This document shows, piece after piece, positions 2-64,000 of a DNA stretch of 64,000 nucleotides. Within the stretch, counting starts at the first letter, position 1, and the number at the start of each line of letters is the position of its first letter. The DNA lies in NCBI RefSeq assembly GCF_041886205.1, contig NZ_CP169029.1. One strand, written 5' to 3'. Below the pieces are notes generated by a model. That model ran no database searches. It saw only the letters and a program-made list of their open reading frames with translations, and had not been told where the DNA came from. Source of the DNA: Escherichia coli (GTDB lineage: Bacteria > Pseudomonadota > Gammaproteobacteria > Enterobacterales > Enterobacteriaceae). A program made the position numbers and the translations under genes.

Positions 2-739
2 GGCAAAATCAACTGGGGCATCGGCATAGGCCTTGCGGGAAGTACCTACAATAACAATTACCCGGAAGACCAGGCAGTGAAAAACTTTGTTGTGGCGAAT
101 ATCACAGGATCGGATTGTCGGCAGTTGATCCATGTTGAAAATGGTAAACATTTTGTTATTCGTAATATCAAAGCCAGCAATATCACGCCGGATTTCAGTA
201 AGAAAGCAGGTATTGATAACGCGACGGTCGCTATTTACGGTTGTGAGAATTTCGTGATTGATAATATTGAAATGATTAATAGCGCCGGGATGTTAATCGG
301 CTATGGGGTAATTAAAGGCAAATATCTCTCGATACCGCAAAATTTCCGAGTGAATAATATTCAGCTGGATAACACCCATCTTGCTTATAAATTGCGCGGT
401 ATCCAAATCTCCGCCGGGAATGCTGTCTCCTTTGTGGCGCTGACTAACATTGAGATGAAGCGTGCCTCGCTTGAGCTACACAACAAACCGCAACATCTTT
501 TTATGCGAAATATCAAGGTGATGCAGGAATCCTCAGTTGGACCCGCATTGAGCATGAACTTCGACATGCGCAAAGACGTTCGCGGCGTGTTTATGGCGAA
601 AAAAGAAACACTGCTGTCTCTTGCAAATGTTCATGCGGTGAATGAAAGAGGGCAAAGCTCCGTCGATATCGACAGGATTAATCACCATATTGTTAATGTG
701 GAAAAGATTAACTTTAGATTGCCGGAACGGAGAGAGTAG
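2..739 (+). CDS. wcaM: colanic acid biosynthesis protein WcaM, C-terminal part (gene starts upstream of the window)
   Basis: Frame is open from the window edge to the stop at 739; lies immediately upstream of gne/galF as at the colanic-acid/O-antigen junction; repetitive beta-helix-like sequence. Confidence 0.55.
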
Positions 740-896
740 ATTTGCGACCATTCATAAACTTACTGGATATAATGTTCTAAAAGATTATAATCCTCACACT
801 AACTGTTAAAGCTGGGGCTGGGCAGCATTGACTACTCAGGGAAGGTACTCATCTTTATCTTGTGTTTCTTACGTAACAACCAGACTAAAGTGATTT

Positions 897-1892
897 ATGA
901 ACGATAACGTTTTGCTCATAGGAGCTTCCGGATTCGTAGGAACCCGACTACTTGAAACGGCAATTGCTGACTTTAATATCAAGAACCTGGACAAACAGCA
1001 GAGCCACTTTTATCCAGAAATCACACAGATTGGTGATGTTCGTGATCAACAGGCACTCGACCAGGCGTTAGCCGGTTTTGACACTGTTGTGCTACTGGCA
1101 GCGGAACACCGCGATGACGTCAGCCCTACTTCTCTCTATTATGATGTCAACGTTCAGGGTACCCGCAATGTGCTGGCGGCCATGGAAAAAAATGGCGTTA
1201 AAAATATCATCTTTACCAGTTCCGTTGCTGTTTATGGTTTGAACAAACACAACCCTGACGAAAACCATCCACACGATCCCTTCAACCACTACGGCAAAAG
1301 TAAGTGGCAGGCAGAGGAAGTGCTGCGTGAATGGTATAACAAAGCACCAACAGAACGTTCATTAACCATCATCCGTCCTACCGTTATCTTCGGTGAACGG
1401 AACCGCGGTAACGTCTATAACTTGCTGAAACAGATCGCTGGCGGCAAGTTTATGATGGTGGGCGCAGGGACTAACTATAAGTCCATGGCTTATGTTGGAA
1501 ACATTGTTGAGTTTATCAAGTACAAACTGAAGAATGTTGCCGCAGGTTACGAGGTTTATAACTACGTTGATAAGCCAGACCTGAACATGAACCAGTTGGT
1601 TGCTGAAGTTGAACAAAGCCTGAACAAAAAGATCCCTTCTATGCACTTGCCTTACCCACTAGGAATGCTGGGTGGATATTGCTTTGATATCCTGAGCAAA
1701 ATTACGGGCAAAAAATACGCTGTCAGCTCTGTGCGCGTGAAAAAATTCTGCGCAACAACACAGTTTGACGCAACGAAAGTGCATTCTTCAGGTTTTGTGG
1801 CACCGTATACGCTGTCGCAAGGTCTGGATCGAACTCTGCAGTATGAATTCGTCCATGCCAAAAAAGACGACATAACGTTTGTTTCTGAGTAA
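897..1892 (+). CDS. gne: UDP-N-acetylglucosamine 4-epimerase (NAD-dependent epimerase/dehydratase family)
   Basis: 331 aa with N-terminal GxxGxxG Rossmann motif (LLIGASGFVGTRL); located between wcaM and galF as in O55/O157-type strains. Confidence 0.7.
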   Translation: MNDNVLLIGASGFVGTRLLETAIADFNIKNLDKQQSHFYPEITQIGDVRDQQALDQALAGFDTVVLLAAEHRDDVSPTSLYYDVNVQGTRNVLAAMEKNGVKNIIFTSSVAVYGLNKHNPDENHPHDPFNHYGKSKWQAEEVLREWYNKAPTERSLTIIRPTVIFGERNRGNVYNLLKQIAGGKFMMVGAGTNYKSMAYVGNIVEFIKYKLKNVAAGYEVYNYVDKPDLNMNQLVAEVEQSLNKKIPSMHLPYPLGMLGGYCFDILSKITGKKYAVSSVRVKKFCATTQFDATKVHSSGFVAPYTLSQGLDRTLQYEFVHAKKDDITFVSE

Positions 1893-2134
1893 TGCAGACG
1901 AGTCAGAGAAAAAAGGACCAGGTTGGACTACGATTATTCGGAAAGAGGTACTGATTAAATTATCAGTATGTGGATTTCCGAGTAATCCGAGTAACCCAGA
2001 TGCTGATGGTGTGTAGTGTTATCGTAAGGTTTAATCAAAGTTATGCGGAACTAAGCTTTGGTATATAGCCATAACGTTTGGCTAACCTATGGCAATAATT
2101 TACGCACTATCAGCCACTTAGAGGTAGGAAAAGA

Positions 2135-3028
2135 ATGACGAATTTAAAAGCAGTTATACCGGTAGCAGGTCTTGGGATGCATATGTTGCCTGCCACTAAG
2201 GCGATTCCCAAAGAGATGCTACCGATCGTCGACAAGCCAATGATTCAGTACATTGTTGACGAGATTGTGGCTGCAGGGATCAAAGAAATCCTCCTGGTAA
2301 CTCACGCGTCCAAGAACGCAGTCGAAAACCACTTCGACACCTCTTATGAATTAGAATCTCTCCTTGAACAGCGCGTGAAGCGTCAACTACTGGCGGAAGT
2401 ACAATCTATCTGTCCGCCGGGCGTGACCATTATGAACGTGCGTCAGGGTGAACCTTTAGGTTTAGGCCACTCCATTTTATGTGCGCGACCTGCCATTGGT
2501 GACAATCCATTTGTCGTGGTGCTGCCAGACGTTGTGATCGACGACGCCAGCGCCGACCCGTTGCGTTACAACCTTGCTGCCATGATTGCGCGCTTCAATG
2601 AAACGGGCCGTAGCCAGGTGCTGGCAAAACGTATGCCGGGTGACCTCTCTGAATACTCCGTCATCCAGACCAAAGAACCGCTGGATCGTGAAGGTAAAGT
2701 CAGCCGCATTGTTGAATTTATCGAAAAACCGGATCAGCCGCAGACGCTGGACTCAGACATAATGGCCGTTGGTCGCTATGTGCTTTCTGCCGATATTTGG
2801 CCGGAACTTGAACGCACTCAGCCTGGTGCATGGGGACGTATTCAGCTGACTGATGCCATTGCTGAACTGGCGAAAAAACAGTCCGTTGATGCCATGCTGA
2901 TGACAGGTGACAGCTACGACTGCGGTAAAAAAATGGGTTATATGCAGGCGTTTGTGAAGTATGGACTACGCAACTTGAAAGAAGGGGCGAAGTTCCGCAA
3001 AGGTATCGAGAAGCTGTTAAGCGAATAA
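2135..3028 (+). CDS. galF: UTP-glucose-1-phosphate uridylyltransferase paralog GalF
   Basis: 297 aa; conserved GalU/GalF N-terminus ([34 protein letters not shown]); conserved position upstream of the O-antigen cluster. Confidence 0.9.
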
Positions 3029-3257
3029 TGAAAATCTGACCGAATGTAACGGTTGATAAGGAAATAATAACGGCAGTGAAAAACTATAGATCAATAAATA
3101 TCACTGCTGTTGAGCGTTTATAATTAACTATGCTACCAATGAATAAATAGTGTGCAGATATGTATTTTTTGTTTGGTAGTCTTGTTTCTCCCTCTGAATA
3201 ATAAGATAATAAACGCTTGGAGATGATTTTTTTAACATGGATTATCATTTCGTACAC

Positions 3258-3296
3258 TGGTAGCGATTAAGCCAGGGGCGGTAGCGTGCATAAATT
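3258..3296 (+). promoter_or_regulatory. JUMPstart element with ops site (GGCGGTAGCGTG at about 3277-3288) for RfaH-dependent antitermination
   Basis: ops consensus read directly in the galF-wbdN intergenic region, preceded by the tggtagcg direct repeat typical of JUMPstart. Confidence 0.8.
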
Positions 3297-3346
3297 TTAA
3301 TGCTTATCAAAACTATTAGCATTAAAAATATATAAGAAATTCTCAA

Positions 3347-4129
3347 ATGAACAAAGAAACCGTTTCAATAATTATGCCCGTTTACAATGGGGCCAAAACT
3401 ATAATCTCATCAGTAGAATCAATTATACATCAATCTTATCAAGATTTTGTTTTGTATATCATTGACGATTGTAGCACCGATGATACATTTTCATTAATCA
3501 ACAGTCGATACAAAAACAATCAGAAAATAAGAATATTGCGTAACAAGACAAATTTAGGTGTTGCAGAAAGTCGAAATTATGGAATAGAAATGGCCACGGG
3601 GAAATATATTTCTTTTTGTGATGCGGATGATTTGTGGCACGAGAAAAAATTAGAGCGTCAAATCGAAGTGTTAAATAATGAATGTGTAGATGTGGTATGT
3701 TCTAATTATTATGTTATAGATAACAAAAGAAATATTGTTGGCGAAGTTAATGCTCCTCATGTGATAAATTATAGAAAAATGCTCATGAAAAACTACATAG
3801 GGAATTTGACAGGAATCTATAATGCCAACAAATTGGGTAAGTTTTATCAAAAAAAGATTGGTCACGAGGATTATTTGATGTGGCTGGAAATAATTAATAA
3901 AACAAATGGTGCTATTTGTATTCAAGATAATCTGGCGTATTACATGCGTTCAAATAATTCACTATCGGGTAATAAAATTAAAGCTGCAAAATGGACATGG
4001 AGTATATATAGAGAACATTTATATTTGTCCTTTCCAAAAACATTATATTATTTTTTATTATATGCTTCAAATGGAGTCATGAAAAAAATAACACATTCAC
4101 TATTAAGGAGAAAGGAGACTAAAAAGTGA
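3347..4129 (+). CDS. wbdN: family-2 glycosyltransferase (O157 O-unit assembly)
   Basis: 260 aa; GT2 N-terminal motif (VSIIMPVYNG ... IIDDCSTD ... DADD); first gene after JUMPstart; AT-rich. Confidence 0.75.
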   Translation: MNKETVSIIMPVYNGAKTIISSVESIIHQSYQDFVLYIIDDCSTDDTFSLINSRYKNNQKIRILRNKTNLGVAESRNYGIEMATGKYISFCDADDLWHEKKLERQIEVLNNECVDVVCSNYYVIDNKRNIVGEVNAPHVINYRKMLMKNYIGNLTGIYNANKLGKFYQKKIGHEDYLMWLEIINKTNGAICIQDNLAYYMRSNNSLSGNKIKAAKWTWSIYREHLYLSFPKTLYYFLLYASNGVMKKITHSLLRRKETKK

Positions 4130-50998: not shown

Positions 50999-51098
50999 AC
51001 GACAAAATGCAGATTATTTCAGCAAACGATTTCAAATTTAAAAAACAGGCTTTGACATTGTGGGTGGGCATCGCTAATATTCGCCTCGTTCTCACGAT

Positions 51099-51174
51099 TC
51101 CTCTGTAGTTCAGTCGGTAGAACGGCGGACTGTTAATCCGTATGTCACTGGTTCGAGTCCAGTCAGAGGAGCCA
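51099..51174 (+). tRNA. asnW: tRNA-Asn (GUU anticodon)
   Basis: Plus-strand tcctctgtagttcagtcggtagaacggcggactgttaatccgtatgtcactggttcgagtccagtcagaggagcca; followed by two hairpins (about 51181-51210 and 51237-51275). Confidence 0.95.
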
Positions 51175-51626
51175 AATTTTAGTTTTGAGACATCTCTATG
51201 AGTCTCAAAACAGTTAAAAAATAAAAATTATTTTTACCCGGTTACCTTGTAAAAAAGTGACCGGGTTTTTTGATTTCTGTGTTTCGTGCGCTTAATCGAG
51301 TCTCACGCTTCAGTGAGCAAATTGTCCCTCCCCAACAGACATCACGATTCGCAAGGTCAAAAACTCTGTTCCATGAAGTACCGTACAAAGATAAAGAGAA
51401 AAATGCCTTATGCGGGATGTCGCTATCGCGTCTTTATCGGGAAACTATGCGTAATTGCCACTTTGCCTTCTGTAATCAGAAAAAGAAGAACTGGAATTTT
51501 AATAAATATTATTTCTCTGGGAACGGGGGGGTATAATCAATATGACGAGTTGAATATTATATTTTTTATAAGAATTATATGAGATTAAAGAAATCTGCCG
51601 TAAAGACAGATTTCTTTAAAAGATAA

Positions 51627-55872: not shown

Positions 55873-55945
55873 ATGTTTTTAGCATCATTGTTGAGACGTA
55901 TTGCATTTAGTTACTACGATTATAAAGCTTATAATTTCAATATTG
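55873..55945 (+). pseudogene. yeeL: 5' end of a family-9 (heptosyltransferase-like) glycosyltransferase gene, yeeL-like, interrupted by IS66 insertion
   Basis: ATG with SD gggagg; MFLASLLRRIAFSYYDYKAYNFNI is in frame, across the IS and its target duplication, with the ORF downstream of the IS. Confidence 0.65.
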
Positions 55946-55998
55946 GTAACCGGCTCATTTAAACCGTCTGGTCTGTTTCCTCCGGCTCTACAAAAATA

Positions 55999-56676
55999 AT
56001 GTCCATCATTTTTAATGGACACTATCGTATGAAACACCGGACCTGGATCACTGAAGCTTTACGTCTTCACTTTGAAGAACATTTACCCCGGGTTGTGGCC
56101 GGGCGTCGCCTGGGTGTACCAAAATCAACAGTTTGTAGTATGTTCGTGCGCTTTCGGAGAGCTGGCCTTTCGTGGCCTTTGCCCGCAGGCATGTCGGAGC
56201 AGGAACTTGATGCCTGCCTTTACGGACAATTTTCCACGGTACCAGTCGTACGTCCTGAAAGCACCGTTATATCCGAAGCCCCCGTGGTAAAAAAACGTCC
56301 CCGGCGGCCCAACTTCCCTTATGAGTTTAAAATCGCCTTAGTGGAGCAGTCACTGCAGCCCGGAGCCTGTGTGGCGCAGATCGCCCGGGAAAACGGAATC
56401 AACGATAACCTGCTCTTCAACTGGCGCCATCAATACCGGAAAGGTGGCCTGCTGCCTTCCGGAAAAAATATGCCGGCACTGCTTCCCGTGACGTTAACGC
56501 CGGAGCCGGATAATAAAATCCCGGCCCCCGCACAGGAACCAGAGCAGATAAATACACCGTCCGACAGTCTGTGTTGTGAGCTGGTTCTGCCGGCCGGAAC
56601 TCTCAGGCTTAAAGGTAAACTGACGCCGGCGTTATTACAGACACTTATCCGCGAAATAAAAGGGAGCAGCCACTGA
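55999..56676 (+). CDS. IS66-family accessory protein (orf1, HTH-containing); true start uncertain
   Basis: First ORF of the element; stop overlaps the start of orf2 (ATGA). Confidence 0.6.
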   Translation: MSIIFNGHYRMKHRTWITEALRLHFEEHLPRVVAGRRLGVPKSTVCSMFVRFRRAGLSWPLPAGMSEQELDACLYGQFSTVPVVRPESTVISEAPVVKKRPRRPNFPYEFKIALVEQSLQPGACVAQIARENGINDNLLFNWRHQYRKGGLLPSGKNMPALLPVTLTPEPDNKIPAPAQEPEQINTPSDSLCCELVLPAGTLRLKGKLTPALLQTLIREIKGSSH

Positions 56677-57023
56677 TGATATCTCTCCCTGCAGGTTCGC
56701 GTATCTGGCTGGTTGCAGGTATCACCGATATGCGAAATGGCTTTAACGGCCTGGCATCAAAAGTTCAGAACGTCCTGAAGGATGACCCGTTCTCCGGACA
56801 CCTGTTCATCTTCCGCGGACGCCGGGGTGACCAGATAAAAGTGTTGTGGGCTGACAGTGACGGACTGTGCCTCTTCACCAAACGCCTGGAGCGGGGCCGC
56901 TTCGTCTGGCCAGTCACCCGTGACGGCAAGGTGCACCTTACTCCGGCTCAGTTATCCATGCTTCTTGAAGGTATCAACTGGAAGCACCCGAAACGAACGG
57001 AACGCGCTGGAATCCGCATATAA
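56676..57023 (+). CDS. IS66-family Orf2 (TnpB-like)
   Basis: 115 aa; MISLPAGSRIWLVAGITDMRNGFNGLA, characteristic IS66 Orf2. Confidence 0.85.
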   Translation: MISLPAGSRIWLVAGITDMRNGFNGLASKVQNVLKDDPFSGHLFIFRGRRGDQIKVLWADSDGLCLFTKRLERGRFVWPVTRDGKVHLTPAQLSMLLEGINWKHPKRTERAGIRI

Positions 57024-57042
57024 CCCGTTGTAAAGTGAGGAT

Positions 57043-58614
57043 ATGGACACCTCACTTGCTCATGAGAACGCCCGCCTGCGGGCACTGTTGCAGACGCAAC
57101 AGGACACCATCCGCCAGATGGCTGAATACAACCGCCTGCTCTCACAGCGGGTGGCGGCTTATGCTTCCGAAATCAACCGGCTGAAGGCGCTGGTTGCGAA
57201 ACTGCAACGTATGCAGTTCGGTAAAAGCTCAGAAAAACTTCGTGCAAAAACCGAACGGCAGATACAGGAAGCACAGGAGCGAATCAGCGCACTTCAGGAA
57301 GAAATGGCGGAAACGCTGGGTGAGCAATATGACCCGGTACTGCCATCCGCCCTGCGCCAGTCTTCAGCCCGTAAACCGTTACCGGCCTCACTTCCCCGTG
57401 AAACCCGGGTTATCCGGCCGGAAGAGGAATGCTGTCCTGCCTGTGGTGGTGAACTCAGTTCTCTGGGATGTGATGTGTCAGAGCAACTGGAGCTTATCAG
57501 CAGCGCCTTTAAGGTTATCGAAACACAACGTCCGAAACAGGCCTGTTGCCGGTGCGACCATATCGTGCAGGCACCAGTACCTTCAAAACCCATTGCACGC
57601 AGTTATGCCGGAGCGGGGCTTCTGGCCCATGTTGTCACCGGGAAATATGCAGACCATCTGCCGTTATACCGCCAGTCAGAAATATACCGTCGTCAGGGAG
57701 TGGAGCTGAGCCGTGCCACACTGGGGCGCTGGACAGGTGCTGTTGCTGAACTGCTGGAGCCGCTGTATGACGTCCTGCGCCAGTATGTGCTGATGCCCGG
57801 TAAAGTCCATGCTGATGATATCCCCGTCCCGGTCCAGGAGCCGGGCAGCGGTAAAACCCGGACAGCCCGGCTGTGGGTCTACGTCCGTGATGACCGTAAC
57901 GCCGGTTCACAGATGCCCCCGGCGGTCTGGTTCGCGTACAGTCCGGACCGGAAAGGTATCCATCCACAAAATCACCTGGCCGGTTACAGCGGTGTGCTTC
58001 AGGCCGATGCTTACGGTGGTTACCGGGCGTTATACGAATCCGGCAGAATAACGGAAGCCGCGTGTATGGCTCATGCCCGGAGAAAAATCCACGATGTGCA
58101 TGCAAGAGCGTCCACCTACATCACCACGGAAGCCCTGCAGCGTATCGGTGAACTGTATGCCATCGAGGCAGAGGTCCGGGGCTGTTCAGCAGAACAGCGT
58201 CTGGCGGCAAGAAAAGCCAGAGCCGCGCCACTGATGCAGTCACTGTATGACTGGATACAGCAACAGATGAAAACACTGTCGCGTCACTCAGATACGGCAA
58301 AAGCGTTCGCATACCTGCTGAAACAGTGGGATGCACTGAACGTGTACTGCAGTAATGGCTGGGTGGAAATCGACAACAACATCGCAGAGAACGCCTTACG
58401 GGGAGTGGCCGTAGGCCGGAAAAACTGGATGTTCGCGGGTTCCGACAGCGGTGGTGAACATGCGGCGGTGTTGTACTCGCTGATCGGCACATGCCGTCTG
58501 AACAATGTGGAGCCAGAAAAGTGGCTGCGTTACGTCATTGAACATATCCAGGACTGGCCGGCAAACCGGGTACGCGATCTGTTGCCCTGGAAAGTTGATC
58601 TGAGCTCTCAGTAA
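57043..58614 (+). CDS. IS66-family transposase (TnpC)
   Basis: 523 aa; N-terminal leucine zipper, CxxC...CxxC zinc-binding motif (CCPACGG ... CCRCD), conserved DDE region. Confidence 0.9.
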
Positions 58615-58643
58615 ATATCAATACGGTTCTGACGAGTCGCTTA

Positions 58644-59284
58644 CCAATATTGAAAAAACAGACTTTGTTGTCATCCATATTCCCGATCAGATTGGCGATG
58701 CTATGGCCATCTTTCCTGTTATTCGGGCGCTTGAATTGCATAAAATTAAGCATCTTTTAATTGTAACGTCGACAATTAATTTAGAAGTCTTTAATGCGCT
58801 TAAACTTGAACAGACTAAATTAACATTAGTCACAATGACTATGCAGGATCACGCAACATTAAAAGAAATAAAAGATTTAGCAAAGAACATAACACAGCAA
58901 TACGGTACGCCGGATCTTTGCATTGAGGGGATGCGTAAAAAGAACCTGAAAACGATGTTATTTATCAGTCAGTTGAAAGCAAAAACGAATTTTCAGGTTG
59001 TTGGTATAACCATGAATTGCTTCTCCCCTTTGTGCAAGAACGCGTCCCGTATGGATCAGAAACTCCGGGCTCCCGTACCTATGACATGGGCATTTATGAT
59101 GCGTGAGGCGGGTTTTCCAGCAGTCAGGCCAATATATGAATTGCCACTAAGTGAGGATGTACTCGATGAGGTGCGCGAGGAAATGCGATCGTTAGGATCT
59201 TACATTGCGTTCAATTTAGAAGGTAGCTCGCAGGAACGTACATTTTCATTATCGATTGCAGAAAATCTAATAGCAAAAATTTAA
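58644..59284 (+). pseudogene. yeeL: yeeL-like glycosyltransferase-9 pseudogene, central part (resumes after the IS66 insertion)
   Basis: In-frame continuation ...NIEKTDFVVIHIPDQIGDAMAIFPVIRALEL..., reminiscent of heptosyltransferase N-terminal domain. Confidence 0.6.
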
Positions 59285-59305
59285 AGTGAAACAGATATAC
59301 CAATA

Positions 59306-59632
59306 GTGATCGTTCATGGACCCAAAGGTGAAGATAAAGCCAGGGCATTAGTGGATTGTTATAATAATGTCTACCGTTTATCCTTACCACCCTCGATTAA
59401 ACGTTCAGCAGCAATCATAAAAGATGCTTATATCGCAATAACTCCTGACACCTCAATATTACATATGGCAAGTGCCTATAATACCCCTGTTGTTGCAATT
59501 TATGCTGATTACAAAACGCGATGGCCCGCAATGGCCGATGTCTCGGAGTCAGTCGTCGTTGGGCAAAAAATTGACAATATAAGTCTGGATGAATTCGCAA
59601 AGGCATTAAAAAGTGTTTTGGCGAGAATATGA
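59306..59632 (+). pseudogene. yeeL: yeeL-like glycosyltransferase-9 pseudogene, C-terminal part (separated from the preceding part by stop/frameshift)
   Basis: C-terminal GT9 motif (ITPDTSILHMASAYNTPVVAIY); separate ORF 22 nt after the previous stop. Confidence 0.6.
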
Positions 59633-59893: not shown

Positions 59894-62800
59894 TCACAGG
59901 TTTTTATAACATGTCGCATAAGCAAACCCAAGCTTTTCAAATACGCTTTGATCACCTGTTGCCAGGGAAACTACGTATTGTTCGCTTGAGTTTGCGGGAC
60001 TAGATGACCAATACATATTTGATTGAAAACCAGCGTCAGTCGTGTAATGCCCCATATCTCCCCATTCACTGTACAGTGACCCGATGCCTCGGGAACTACA
60101 GTGGTTTAAATAGTTTGCTCTGGGGAGCGTGTAGCCATTGCTGCTGCAAAAATTTTCAGCAAGGCTGTATATCATGAAAGCCTCGCCGGCGTTCACCCAC
60201 CAACTCTTCACACGGATTTCGTATACATAGCTAGGGCCTCCTGATTTTGGCGTCGCCGTAATCCTTTCCGAATTGCTGCCGACATTTTTAAATGTCACTT
60301 TACCGGTAGCATCAACATCGACCCAGGAGGCAGAGCTTGAAAACTCATAATCAGCCGCCGTTTTTCCTGGGGCAAAGTTGTCATTATTCAACTGATAATA
60401 CGCCCCGGTGAACCCCTGCGAAGGGAATGTAGTTGTCGGTAGGTCAGTACCATTGACTGATACTGTACCGCTCATTATTTTGTCTTCTGCGCGAGTGAAT
60501 TGTATTGTGGTACTCAGACCAGCTTGATGAACACCATTCAATACAGGGATCAGCGTTGCGATACCCTCTCCGCCTCCTGTAATAGTGGCTTTGTAATCAC
60601 CGTTGATATTTAGACTGTAATCAATTGCGCTAATTTTTATATAGGGCACGTTAGTACCTGATTGCACAAATTCCATCCCTTCAGAAACTTTGATCGGATT
60701 GCCTGATATATCGTGCAGAACAAGACGTAATTCAGCACTATCGGTATAGTCCCCTTTCAGTGATGACCGATTGCTCTTAAGGACGGACTGCGAGGTGTCT
60801 GCCGGGCCAGCCACCAGCGTTATATCTACTGTTTGCATTCCACCAGCGGTCGTGACTGCGCTTACCGTGACGCTACCTGTCATCGCTCCTTTCACGCTTG
60901 TTGTCGCGATTCCGTTTTGATCGGTCACCGCTGTTAATGACGTTAATGTGGCAGAGCCGCTTTTTAAGGCGAAGTACACAGTGAGACCTTCGATCAGGTT
61001 ACCACTGCCATCCTCAACCGTTGCCTTTAAGGTACTTAAATCAGTGTTGGTGGCGGCGATAGTCGATGGATCAGCGATAAAGCTAGCAACATGGGCGGTG
61101 CTTGAGTTGCCAGTGACTTTCACGGTTGTCTGTGTCTGTATTGTTACGCCGTTATGGAAAGATGCAGTCACCGTATATGTACCGACTTTATTGCTGGTCA
61201 AAACGACTGGAGCCTGACCTGAAGAGTTAGTTCTCACTTTTCCGCCACTTAACGTCGCCCCTTCTGGCGTTACGCTAAAGTTGATGACCTGACCCTCCAC
61301 TGGAGTGCCATTTGCAGAGGTTAGCGTTGCCGTCAGAGTAGCGCCTGTAGGGGCATAGACACCGATAAGCGGACTGGACGCCGTGAGTGTCAGTTTTTCA
61401 TCAATAGCCTCCAGTTGTTTCTCAAGTGAGGCTCCATTCGGCAGGGATGCTTTCACCATATACGAACCGTTTCTTTCGGGCGTCATGGTGACCTCGGCTA
61501 CACCCTGCGTATTAGTAGAGACCGTATTCTGGCTGATGATCATTTGCGAGGATGGCTCTGCACTGAATGTCACGGGTTGATGCGCAACCGGGTTGCCAAA
61601 CTGGTCGTTAACGTGAGCTTTAACTGCTACGTCTTGTGCGACCATTACCTGACCTTCCGGTATCTCCAGACTGGTAATCGTCGCAGAATTAACATCTGCA
61701 CTGGCATTCAGTAATCGCGAGATGACTTCAGTAGGTTTATCTGCCAGAGAGGCTGAAACTGTTTTCAGTCCGACCTCGGTGCTTGTCACAAGAATTTCAG
61801 CGAAACCCCGATCATCCGTTTCAACGCTGGTGCTGCTTAGCGTGACGGAGGTTCCGCGGAAATTAACTTTTATGCCTTCTACCGGGTTGCCGTTAGCGTC
61901 AGTGACGCTTGCCGTCATGGTTGCGCCCTCGGTCGTGCTGACGACGAATGAGTATACAGAGGTTAAGGAGGCTAGTTTTGCGGTACCAGCATCGGCAATC
62001 AAAGTCACCTGTTTCGTATCACTGACACCATAATTGTTCACGCTAACTGTCACGGGGTAGGTGCCGGATTTTGTACCGCTCAGTGTAACTTCAGCCTTGC
62101 CGTTGATATCAGTAATGGCGGAACCGCCTTGTCCGAGAGTAAAGCTTGCGCTCACATCTGCCGGTAGCGTGAATGTCACCGCCTCATTGGCTAACGGGTT
62201 GCCGTTTCCATCAGTCACTGTTGCCTGCAGCCTGGTCATCCCGACGTTATTAGCGATAAAATTGTCCTCGGTAACGTTAAGATTAACCTGTGCAGTGAGC
62301 GTATCCGCAATAAAGTTCACCACCAACTGCTCACTCTTACCGCCAGTCATCGATGCTGTAACAGTATGAGCGCCTGCTTTTGTACCTTTCAGCGTGACTT
62401 TCGCTTTGCCTTCAGCATCAGTAATCACTTTACCGCCATCGCTCAGCGTGAAGTTCGCCTTCACATCTTCCGGCAGAGTAAATGTTACCTCAGTGTTGGC
62501 TATCGCATTGCCCTCTGTATCAGCGACTGTTGCTGTTAGTGTCGTGAGATCGTTATTGTCGGCAATCACCGGATCCTTCGAGGCTGCCAGCGTGATTTCA
62601 GCATTCGCGACGTTCGGCACATAGGTCACTGTTTGTTGCATCGAATCGCCATTTTCGAGGGTTGCCGTCAATTGATAAACCCCGGCTTTTGTAGCGGTAA
62701 AGCTTGCGTAAAAATTGCCGTCGTGGTTGGTAGTATATATAGCGTTATTACTGGGGGTCACGCCTTCACTTGGTGAAACGCTGAGGGTTACCTCCTGCTG

Positions 62801-64000
62801 GGGGACACCGTTGCCGTAATTATCCTTCACCTCAATATACAGACTGGTTGTCTCGCCTGCGGAGACTGTATCAAAAAGTGCCTGTAGCAAGGTGAGATGT
62901 GCCGTAGACGCATCAGCGTTGACATTAATTGATGTGCTAAGCGTGGAGCTACCATTTTCCAGACTGGCCTCAACGGTATCCGGTCTCGCTCCTGATTCTA
63001 TCGAGGAGCGGGTATTGGTATAAGTGACGGTAGCCTTACCCTGTTCGTTCGTCACGGCTTGACCGCCGTTCGTCATTTCGGCTGTCGCTGCGTTGCTGGT
63101 GAAGTTCACAGTCACACCTTTCACCGGAAAGCCATTATTATCAACGACTGTGGCGGTGATGACGCTGCCGGAGCTGTTCTGCGGGGTACCGGCGATTATG
63201 CTGTCTGGGACAGGCGTCAACTCGATAATTTTTGCCGCCGCTGTGTCGCCAATAAAATGCACAGTTTTGTTGTCGCTGGCACCATTATTAGCCAGTGATG
63301 CAGTAACCGTCTTCTCACCAAAGGCAACGCCTGCGAGAGTGGCCTGCGCGATGCCAGACTCGTTGGTATTACTTACTCCCGGGGTCAGGGTGAGTCCTGA
63401 AGAGGCTGAGCTGAATGTTACCGGAAGATTATTCACCTCATTGTCGAACTGATCTTTAACCGTTGCAGTTAGCGTTGCGCTATCGACGCCATTACCTGTG
63501 ATCTCATCTTTTGATATCTGCAGGACAACCTGAGCCGAGGCTTTGTCCGCCACAAATGTTACCGGCTGCGAATCACTGGTATTGTTATTACCCAGCGTTG
63601 CGGTAACCGTATGCGTGCCCGCTTTTTTACCTTTCAGCGTGACATGCGCTTCCCCATTGGCCTGAGTGATGGCAATACCGTTATTTTCAAGGGTAAAGTT
63701 TGCCGCAACGTCCTGTGGCATGGTGAAGTTTACCGTTATCCCCGCCACCGGATGATTCGACGGATCTTTCACTGTTGCTGTCAGAGTTGTCTCATCCACG
63801 CCATTCCCAATGATTTCCGCTTTCGATGTTTGCAAAACGACAACCGCTCTGTCTTTATCCGCCACAAACGTCATTGGCTGTGCATCGCTGACATTGCTGT
63901 TAGCCAGACGAGCCATGATCATATGCGTGCCCGCTAACGTGCCGGTCAGGGAGGCGATTGCAACCCCGTTACTATCCGTCATGCCTTTTCCTCCGTTGCT
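59894..64000 (-). CDS. yeeJ: inverse-autotransporter-type adhesin YeeJ, C-terminal about 1368 codons (gene continues beyond the window end)
   Basis: Long array of about 100-aa bacterial Ig-like (Big_1) repeats (recurring VTATLGNN..SD..PVTFVADK and TLKGTKAGTHTVTA blocks) and a C-terminal lectin-like domain; frame stays open to the window edge. Confidence 0.85.
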   Translation of the reverse strand, partial: SNGGKGMTDSNGVAIASLTGTLAGTHMIMARLANSNVSDAQPMTFVADKDRAVVVLQTSKAEIIGNGVDETTLTATVKDPSNHPVAGITVNFTMPQDVAANFTLENNGIAITQANGEAHVTLKGKKAGTHTVTATLGNNNTSDSQPVTFVADKASAQVVLQISKDEITGNGVDSATLTATVKDQFDNEVNNLPVTFSSASSGLTLTPGVSNTNESGIAQATLAGVAFGEKTVTASLANNGASDNKTVHFIGDTAAAKIIELTPVPDSIIAGTPQNSSGSVITATVVDNNGFPVKGVTVNFTSNAATAEMTNGGQAVTNEQGKATVTYTNTRSSIESGARPDTVEASLENGSSTLSTSINVNADASTAHLTLLQALFDTVSAGETTSLYIEVKDNYGNGVPQQEVTLSVSPSEGVTPSNNAIYTTNHDGNFYASFTATKAGVYQLTATLENGDSMQQTVTYVPNVANAEITLAASKDPVIADNNDLTTLTATVADTEGNAIANTEVTFTLPEDVKANFTLSDGGKVITDAEGKAKVTLKGTKAGAHTVTASMTGGKSEQLVVNFIADTLTAQVNLNVTEDNFIANNVGMTRLQATVTDGNGNPLANEAVTFTLPADVSASFTLGQGGSAITDINGKAEVTLSGTKSGTYPVTVSVNNYGVSDTKQVTLIADAGTAKLASLTSVYSFVVSTTEGATMTASVTDANGNPVEGIKVNFRGTSVTLSSTSVETDDRGFAEILVTSTEVGLKTVSASLADKPTEVISRLLNASADVNSATITSLEIPEGQVMVAQDVAVKAHVNDQFGNPVAHQPVTFSAEPSSQMIISQNTVSTNTQGVAEVTMTPERNGSYMVKASLPNGASLEKQLEAIDEKLTLTASSPLIGVYAPTGATLTATLTSANGTPVEGQVINFSVTPEGATLSGGKVRTNSSGQAPVVLTSNKVGTYTVTASFHNGVTIQTQTTVKVTGNSSTAHVASFIADPSTIAATNTDLSTLKATVEDGSGNLIEGLTVYFALKSGSATLTSLTAVTDQNGIATTSVKGAMTGSVTVSAVTTAGGMQTVDITLVAGPADTSQSVLKSNRSSLKGDYTDSAELRLVLHDISGNPIKVSEGMEFVQSGTNVPYIKISAIDYSLNINGDYKATITGGGEGIATLIPVLNGVHQAGLSTTIQFTRAEDKIMSGTVSVNGTDLPTTTFPSQGFTGAYYQLNNDNFAPGKTAADYEFSSSASWVDVDATGKVTFKNVGSNSERITATPKSGGPSYVYEIRVKSWWVNAGEAFMIYSLAENFCSSNGYTLPRANYLNHCSSRGIGSLYSEWGDMGHYTTDAGFQSNMYWSSSPANSSEQYVVSLATGDQSVFEKLGFAYATCYKNL

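Follow-up and report, generated by a model that had tools for sequence, protein, structure and literature searches.

We analysed a 64,000-nucleotide stretch of Escherichia coli DNA (contig NZ_CP169029.1; below, the window), one end of which, positions 59894 to 64000, carries the distal part of the adhesin gene yeeJ. An open reading frame of 1368 codons runs on the minus strand from the window edge at 64000 to a stop codon at 59894-59896. The plus-strand translation of the same interval contains many stop codons, and coding on that strand was rejected in favour of the minus strand.

59894..64000, minus strand: 3' part of yeeJ, 4107 nt, codons 991-2358 of the 2358-codon K-12-type gene and the stop codon at 59894-59896

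The 3' 58% of yeeJ lies inside the window and the 5' 2970 nt lie past its end; a window coordinate equals 66971 minus the yeeJ gene position.

The identity of the gene, named as yeeJ in a preliminary description of this DNA, is verified by several observations. In a megablast search of 5,426 complete E. coli genomes, the segment was 99.9-100% identical to yeeJ of K-12 BW25113 and CFSAN061772, the nucleotide identity to the K-12 BW25113 gene being 99.9% across all 4107 nt. At least 99% identity was found in 823 complete records, the K-12 reference strains among them, and the matching feature is annotated as 'yeeJ: inverse autotransporter adhesin YeeJ'. One related locus, L001, differs from the window by a single nucleotide and a single amino acid over the shared 4107 nt. 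The full gene of K-12 BW25113 and CFSAN061772 is 7077 bp (2358 codons) long and is flanked by tRNA-Asn and mtfA on one side and by the yeeL pseudogene, shiA, and amn on the other. The gene in the window is an ortholog of yeeJ by its near-identical sequence and by its position in the order asnT-yeeJ-yeeL-shiA-amn, and the window is collinear with L001 and with another such locus, L002, except for a 2.7-kb insertion in yeeL. We are highly confident in the resulting explanation as a whole: the window has the K-12-type ('short', 2358-residue) allele of yeeJ, a gene for a type Ve (inverse autotransporter) adhesin, and the segment covers its distal passenger region. The gene, its Big_1 array, its lectin-like tip, and its length variants are all already published.

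An iterated hidden Markov model (HMM) built on the protein itself resolves 16 immunoglobulin (Ig)-like domains, D1 to D16, at residues 535-2157 of full-length YeeJ. Of these, D6-D16 are complete in the window and D5 is represented by its last 46 residues, giving 11 complete domains and the tail of a twelfth, and a two-part C-terminal module follows. The features of the passenger region, with the evidence for each in parentheses, are as follows.

63863..64000, minus strand: last 46 residues of Ig-like D5, which is truncated at the window edge (own HMM)
63551..63841, minus strand: Ig-like (Big_1) D6, probable hybrid, its first ~27 residues of cassette X type and the remainder of Y type (own HMM, allele comparison)
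63762..63784, minus strand: short-allele junction, CTGACAGCAACAGTGAAAGATCC encoding LTATVKDP, with the X-type/Y-type crossover inside (allele alignment)
63251..63529, minus strand: Ig-like D7 (Pfam, own HMM)
62921..63226, minus strand: Ig-like D8 (Pfam, own HMM)
62618..62893, minus strand: Ig-like D9 (Pfam, own HMM)
62309..62596, minus strand: Ig-like D10, the best Pfam Big_1 stretch (Pfam, own HMM)
61997..62287, minus strand: Ig-like D11, forming with D10 the most similar pair, amino-acid identity 51% and nucleotide identity 59% (own HMM, identity matrices)
61715..61972, minus strand: Ig-like D12 (own HMM)
61403..61675, minus strand: Ig-like D13 (own HMM)
61118..61393, minus strand: Ig-like D14 (own HMM)
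60812..61087, minus strand: Ig-like D15 (own HMM)
60500..60787, minus strand: Ig-like D16, the most divergent, at 15-21% identity to the other window domains (own HMM, identity matrices)
60191..60481, minus strand: Ig-like domain similar to invasin D4, the first of the two parts of the C-terminal module (Pfam, profile, model, Foldseek)
59897..60190, minus strand: C-type-lectin-like tip, as in invasin D5 and intimin D3 (Pfam, profile, fold, conserved columns)

That the repeats are Big_1 Ig-like domains of ~100 residues, as described previously, was confirmed by Pfam, which found Big_1 (E=2.7e-165) in 11 stretches of the window protein and Invasin_D3 (E=3.4e-89) in 10; such a passenger of tandem Big_1 or invasin-D3-type domains is characteristic of inverse autotransporters. 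The product has a period of about 100-104 residues, and its autocorrelation peaks at lag 104 (z=5.2), also at 415, and most strongly at 518 (z=8.2). The domains have a common fold at only about 29% sequence identity: the amino-acid identity of the window domain pairs averages 29% with a maximum of 51% (D10/D11), and their codon-aligned nucleotide identity averages 42% with a maximum of 59%. Domains D4, D6, D7, D10, and D11 form a sub-family with 38-51% identity, and D6 and D10 have in common a 59-nt stretch with 83% identity (63593-63651 and 62348-62406). The peaks at lags 518 and 415, together with the likeness of these domains, hint at an older multi-domain duplication inside the array, the parts concerned being D5-D6 and D10-D11 (62000-64000). 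In the part of the full-length L001 gene that lies outside the window, Pfam recognized the N-terminal IAT_beta domain (PF11924, E=9.4e-114) but no LysM domain at E<=1e-3; the LysM of YeeJ was reported from Prosite (PMC5595812).

Comparison of the alleles demonstrated that the length variation of yeeJ comes down to one 609-bp two-domain cassette located directly after D5 and composed of domain X (99 residues) and then domain Y (104 residues). The cassette zone is near 63.4-64.0 kb of the window, and the alleles form the following series.

K-12 type (the window allele): 7077 bp, one hybrid X/Y domain, 16 Ig domains
AH65 (frameshifted): 7399 bp, one X-Y cassette (D5-X-Y-D7), 17 Ig domains
O157:H7 / UMN026 type: 7983 bp, two X-Y cassettes, 19 Ig domains
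O166:H15 type: 8613 bp, three X-Y cassettes, 21 Ig domains

Within the multi-cassette alleles, the Y copies are 97-100% and the X copies 82-99% identical among themselves at the amino-acid level. X and Y alternate, and thus neighbouring domains stay about 38% identical. At an offset of 609 nt, the alleles of O157 and O166 match themselves with identities of 83.5% over 825 nt and 90.8% over 1431 nt, and contain exact DNA repeats of 74 and 161 nt, respectively. No length differences were mapped within D7-D16 among the intact and near-intact alleles compared, and copy number varies from strain to strain only for the cassette beside D5. The earlier suggestion of a strain-variable repeat number therefore holds in that the number of domains differs among strains, and fails in that the variation is confined to one cassette and does not extend over the array; variation as such was already reported in PMC5595812. 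In that study, the yeeJ variants of MG1655 and UMN026, which are 906 bp (three Big domains) apart, were functionally alike in biofilm assays, and the two size variants were told apart by polymerase chain reaction (PCR) screening. We found no further description of yeeJ repeat alleles in the later literature. Our data show directly the hybrid junction of the short allele and the allele series, in which the X-Y cassette is a discrete unit of variable copy number, present in one, two, or three copies in complete E. coli genomes, the published description covering two variants only. Beyond the published outline, the present data add the single 609-bp two-domain cassette, a series of four or more allelic states, and the hybrid Ig domain of K-12. 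These may be of use for typing of yeeJ alleles, for association studies, where variant calls near the cassette are alignment-sensitive, and for engineering of YeeJ for surface display.

The structure of D6 in the K-12-type allele points to the origin of the short form. This domain starts with VVLQTSKAEIIGNGVDETTLTATVKDP, identical to the head of X, and continues with SNHPVAGITVNF..., where it agrees with the body of Y. In comparison with the O157 allele, gene positions 2900-3186 have an identity of 95.8% at the same coordinates and of 28.9% at +906; for positions 3210-3500 the relation is reversed, with 33% at the same coordinates and 94.8% at +906. At the crossover, the X-type and Y-type sequences of the compared alleles have no more than about 2-11 nt of identity in common. 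The best matches of the X body in the K-12 allele, to D6 and D7, reach 53-54%; as this body has no close counterpart there, the long alleles cannot be derived by duplication of K-12 sequence. Judging from these alignments, D6 is most likely an in-frame X-head/Y-tail hybrid produced by a deletion. Such a deletion would be mediated by very short homology and would join the head of X to the tail of Y within the conserved LTATVKDP motif, keeping the register of the Ig fold. Starting from a one-cassette allele, 297 bp would be lost; starting from a two-cassette allele, the loss would be 906 bp. In the genome sample described below, each contiguous match of K-12 type is a single 3001-nt piece with 97.1-100% identity, and this uniformity fits a single old event.

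At the DNA level, the allele in the window is not repetitive. In the preliminary description, the domains were regarded as near-identical and the gene as a series of long imperfect tandem repeats, prone to recombinational expansion or contraction and to collapse in short-read assembly. Tandem Repeats Finder with a minimum score of 30 detected no array inside yeeJ at 59894-64000, and a repeat search of the segment returned only imperfect matches of 15-35 nt, which is at chance level, so no head-to-tail DNA copies are alike enough for detection. A blastn self-comparison gave two weak off-diagonal matches, one at offset 312 (179 nt, 70% identity) and one at offset 1245 (59 nt, 83% identity), and the DNA autocorrelation at lag 312 has a z of only 3.7. 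Thus the expected periodicity is present in the protein and absent from the DNA as a tandem array. The longest exact direct repeat is 16 nt; for equally long segments elsewhere in the window this value is 11-15 nt, and codon shuffling gives 11.7 on average. Inverted repeats, and words that the segment has in common with the remainder of the window, reach 14 nt at most. Of the sequence blocks quoted as recurrent, VTATLGNN.TSDSQPVTFVADK occurs once, the next-best site having substitutions at 8 of 22 positions, and KVTLKGTKAGTHTVTA has no exact occurrence, being approached by one site with one substitution and another with two. Near-identity of the domains is likewise contradicted by their mean identities given above. 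In E. coli, exchange by RecA becomes efficient at roughly 23-27 nt of identity or more, and the typical k-mers of assemblers are longer than 16. Because the domains have diverged, the repeats of this allele are all too short to support efficient homologous recombination or to make an assembly collapse; the latter is implausible, and the 823 complete records with at least 99% identity speak against either kind of instability. The allele can be trusted in assemblies, and its domains, at about 42% nucleotide identity, illustrate that a protein of periodic domains need not be encoded by a repetitive, unstable gene.

The contiguous K-12-type arrangement is present in 1671 of the 5426 complete genomes. 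Alleles were called from the match span in each record on sampled rows, since overlapping BLAST pieces get joined and query coverage is unreliable. From the 2914 genomes that have the cassette region, a spread sample of 60 comprised about 30 alleles of K-12 type, about 26 with two cassettes, 1 with three, and 1-2 with one. Three-cassette alleles occur in at least 29 genomes, and more than three cassettes were not seen among the best 60 records, which are not an exhaustive set. About 40% of the sampled genomes retain only a remnant of yeeJ, in agreement with the account in PMC5595812; at one inspected locus (L004) the remnant adjoins the yersiniabactin high-pathogenicity island (fyuA, ybt) at tRNA-Asn. 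Moreover, many yeeJ alleles are pseudogenes with frameshifts, internal stops, or insertions of IS3 elements. Among the decayed loci (L004, L007, and the matches H41 and H106), L007 has a 4757-bp yeeJ pseudogene that lacks roughly gene positions 716-3198, and IS3-family insertions are found as well, including in one O157:H7 strain. The polymorphism of yeeJ consists of a few stable allelic classes and is not that of a hypervariable repeat.

The C-terminal module was assigned by profile and structure comparison. Pfam scores on the single sequence are low, E=2.6e-5 and 25.1 bits for Invasin_D4, slightly below the cut-off of 27 bits, and E=2.5e-4 and 21.9 bits for Intimin_C, also below its cut-off. 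A search of 1.84 billion representative proteins with the last 215 residues yielded 326 homologues. In an alignment of 47 sequences, F39, P40, A47, W114, W160, and G161 (numbered within the 215-residue segment) are invariant and C132 and C211 are nearly so. The family profile matched residues 290-475 (D4-D5) of invasin 1CWV with E=2.4e-36 and intimin with E=1.6e-7. An AlphaFold2 model of the module based on diverse homologues has a mean predicted local distance difference test (pLDDT) score of 94.5; a run with a shallow alignment of 15 close relatives had a pLDDT of 41 and was discarded. Using this model, Foldseek matched invasin 1CWV with a template modelling score (TM-score) of 0.78, a root-mean-square deviation of 2.6 A, and E=3.8e-14, as well as the intimin structures 1F00 (TM-score 0.67), 2ZQK, and 3NCX. 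Searches of solved structures with single sequences gave one weak intimin match for the whole fragment (E=4.2e-5) and, for the C-terminal 215 residues, only chance matches such as malonyl-CoA decarboxylase (E about 0.7). The invasin/intimin lectin-like domain proposed earlier is thus borne out by profile, model, and fold comparison and is, more precisely, an Ig and C-type-lectin-like superdomain of the kind found in inverse autotransporters as invasin D4-D5 and intimin D2-D3. In NCBIfam, no YeeJ-specific model scored above its cut-off, and the models of the paralogues IatC, YrIlm, Ilp, and intimin were all below theirs; a weak match to TIGR04134 was judged to be due to chance. Identity with intimin itself was rejected, as the NCBIfam equivalog NF033627 has a cut-off of 1400 bits and scores 113 bits on the window protein and 432 bits on full-length YeeJ. 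YeeJ is a paralogue of intimin, not intimin.

Experimentally, YeeJ was shown to be surface-exposed, its LysM domain to bind peptidoglycan, and its overexpression to promote biofilm formation (PMC5595812, PMC6714894); the cell lines and matrix proteins assayed gave no sign of adhesion (PMC5595812). From the literature and by analogy, the N-terminal beta-barrel, located outside the window, would anchor YeeJ in the outer membrane and export the passenger. The chain of Ig domains would be a long, rigid stalk presenting the lectin-like tip at a distance from the cell surface, and the number of cassettes would change the reach of this stalk. If so, the two Ig domains of each additional cassette could let the tip clear surface layers such as the O-antigen or capsule, the shortest form being that of K-12-like lineages. 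The alternating order of X and Y keeps identical domains from adjoining. The joint claim that cassette number tunes stalk length and that the allele series has not previously been described in this form is unlikely to hold.

The polarity of the change in D6 could also be the opposite one, with the 16-domain K-12-type allele ancestral, the longer alleles formed by insertion or duplication, and D6 not a hybrid at all. The Y domains, 82-85% identical to K-12 D6, would agree with this. However, the X body, with its best K-12 match of 53-54%, is no copy of K-12 sequence; the match of D6 to O157 switches from the same coordinates (95.8%) to +906 (94.8%) within 23 nt, which is a recombinant signature; and a one-cassette allele, D5-X-Y-D7, does exist. 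We consider an ancestral short allele rather improbable. Far less probable, to the point of being negligible, is that the short allele is an assembly artefact, a collapsed array of X-Y cassettes. Although the exact repeats of the long alleles (74 nt in O157, 161 nt in O166) could trouble very short reads, the same junction is found in all 1671 complete genomes mentioned above, including the K-12 reference strains, the two size variants were separated experimentally by PCR (PMC5595812), and a collapse would not yield a clean fusion of X head and Y tail at a site with so few shared nucleotides. Finally, long imperfect tandem repeats in the DNA could make up the whole Ig array of the window, which would then expand and contract readily and collapse in assemblies. 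The periodic protein and the varying length of yeeJ among strains would suit this idea, as would mis-assembly as a possible cause of the apparent frameshifts in some yeeJ genes (PMC5595812). It is at odds with the absence of any Tandem Repeats Finder match, with a nucleotide identity of domains that averages 42% and peaks at 59%, with a longest exact repeat of 16 nt, below the lengths for efficient RecA exchange and typical k-mers, with the same sequence in hundreds of independently finished genomes, and with length differences of intact and near-intact alleles that fall in one cassette and never in D7-D16. This explanation is already largely refuted, and we give it a very low probability.

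Several points weigh against our own reading, in which a distal passenger region ending in an invasin-like module acquired its hybrid D6 by deletion. A deletion in the K-12 lineage, as opposed to an insertion elsewhere, is preferred by parsimony only, among E. coli alleles, and the crossover interval of ~2-11 nt leaves replication slippage, illegitimate recombination, or gene conversion as routes that may have been taken. The allele frequencies come from a 60-row sample of the search output and not from a full census. The single-sequence scores of Invasin_D4 and Intimin_C are under the Pfam cut-offs, and thus the C-terminal assignment relies on the family profile and the predicted fold. The function of a stalk with variable reach is suggested by the literature and by the invasin and intimin structures.

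Downstream of yeeJ, the yeeL pseudogene (58580-59632, plus strand), convergent with yeeJ, is split by an insertion sequence. This 2699-bp element of the IS66 family, annotated as ISCro1 in the matching genomes, occupies 55946-58644 and encodes TnpA (225 aa), TnpB (115 aa), and a transposase (523 aa). It has imperfect terminal inverted repeats beginning with GTAA and is bordered by an 8-bp target duplication, CAATATTG, at 55938-55945 and 58645-58652. The insertion is absent from K-12 BW25113 and CFSAN061772 and present with 100% identity in strain HH194M (NZ_CP101513.1), isolated from a migratory bird. In K-12-type genomes, yeeL, a member of glycosyltransferase family 9, is a pseudogene with an internal stop; an intact gene, encoding a 350-residue family 9 protein of the heptosyltransferase family, is found in O157:H7, avian pathogenic E. 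coli (APEC) O78, O166:H15, AH65, and NN5. Dedicated heptosyltransferases modify some autotransporter adhesins. Elsewhere in the window, the interval 51075-51181 contains matches of 85-107 nt (97-100% identity) to the other tRNA-Asn genes of the region, which belong to the known multi-copy family of asn tRNAs around yeeO.

The closest known system is YeeJ of K-12 MG1655 (b1978), the short variant described by Martinez-Gil et al. 2017 (PMC5595812). With 99.9% nucleotide identity, that gene and the one in the window are practically the same; their downstream neighbours, Big_1 array, and lectin-like C-terminus agree, and nothing substantial differs, the locus of the window strain having the additional ISCro1 insertion in the yeeL pseudogene. 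The domain counts are different: one Invasin_D3 and 13 Big_1 domains were listed in that paper, whereas our iterated HMM recognizes 16 Ig-like domains, to which the invasin-D4-like Ig domain is added. The long variant 'yeeJ UMN026', found also in O157:H7, is 7983 bp long, occupies the same locus, and is collinear with the window allele outside the cassette, the identity of the O157:H7 allele (L005) to the window being 97.8% upstream of the junction and 95.3% downstream. The UMN026-type allele has two X-Y cassettes, whose Y1 and Y2 domains are 97% identical in protein sequence, and a 74-nt exact repeat; the window allele, in contrast, has one hybrid X/Y domain and repeats of at most 16 nt. UpaH is likewise a large surface adhesin of repeated domains, for which repeat-driven mis-assembly has been documented (PMC5595812); UpaH and similar adhesin genes contain almost identical DNA repeats, unlike the yeeJ allele of the window.

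Invasin of Yersinia pseudotuberculosis (1CWV) and intimin of enteropathogenic and enterohaemorrhagic E. coli (1F00, 2ZQK) are likewise inverse autotransporters in which an Ig stalk carries an Ig and C-type-lectin-like superdomain. The C-terminus of YeeJ has only 18-24% sequence identity to these solved structures, and we know of no binding of YeeJ to integrin or Tir. The stalk of YeeJ, with 16 Ig domains, is much longer than that of intimin, with about 3-4, or that of invasin, in which 4 Ig-like domains lead up to the lectin-like D5.

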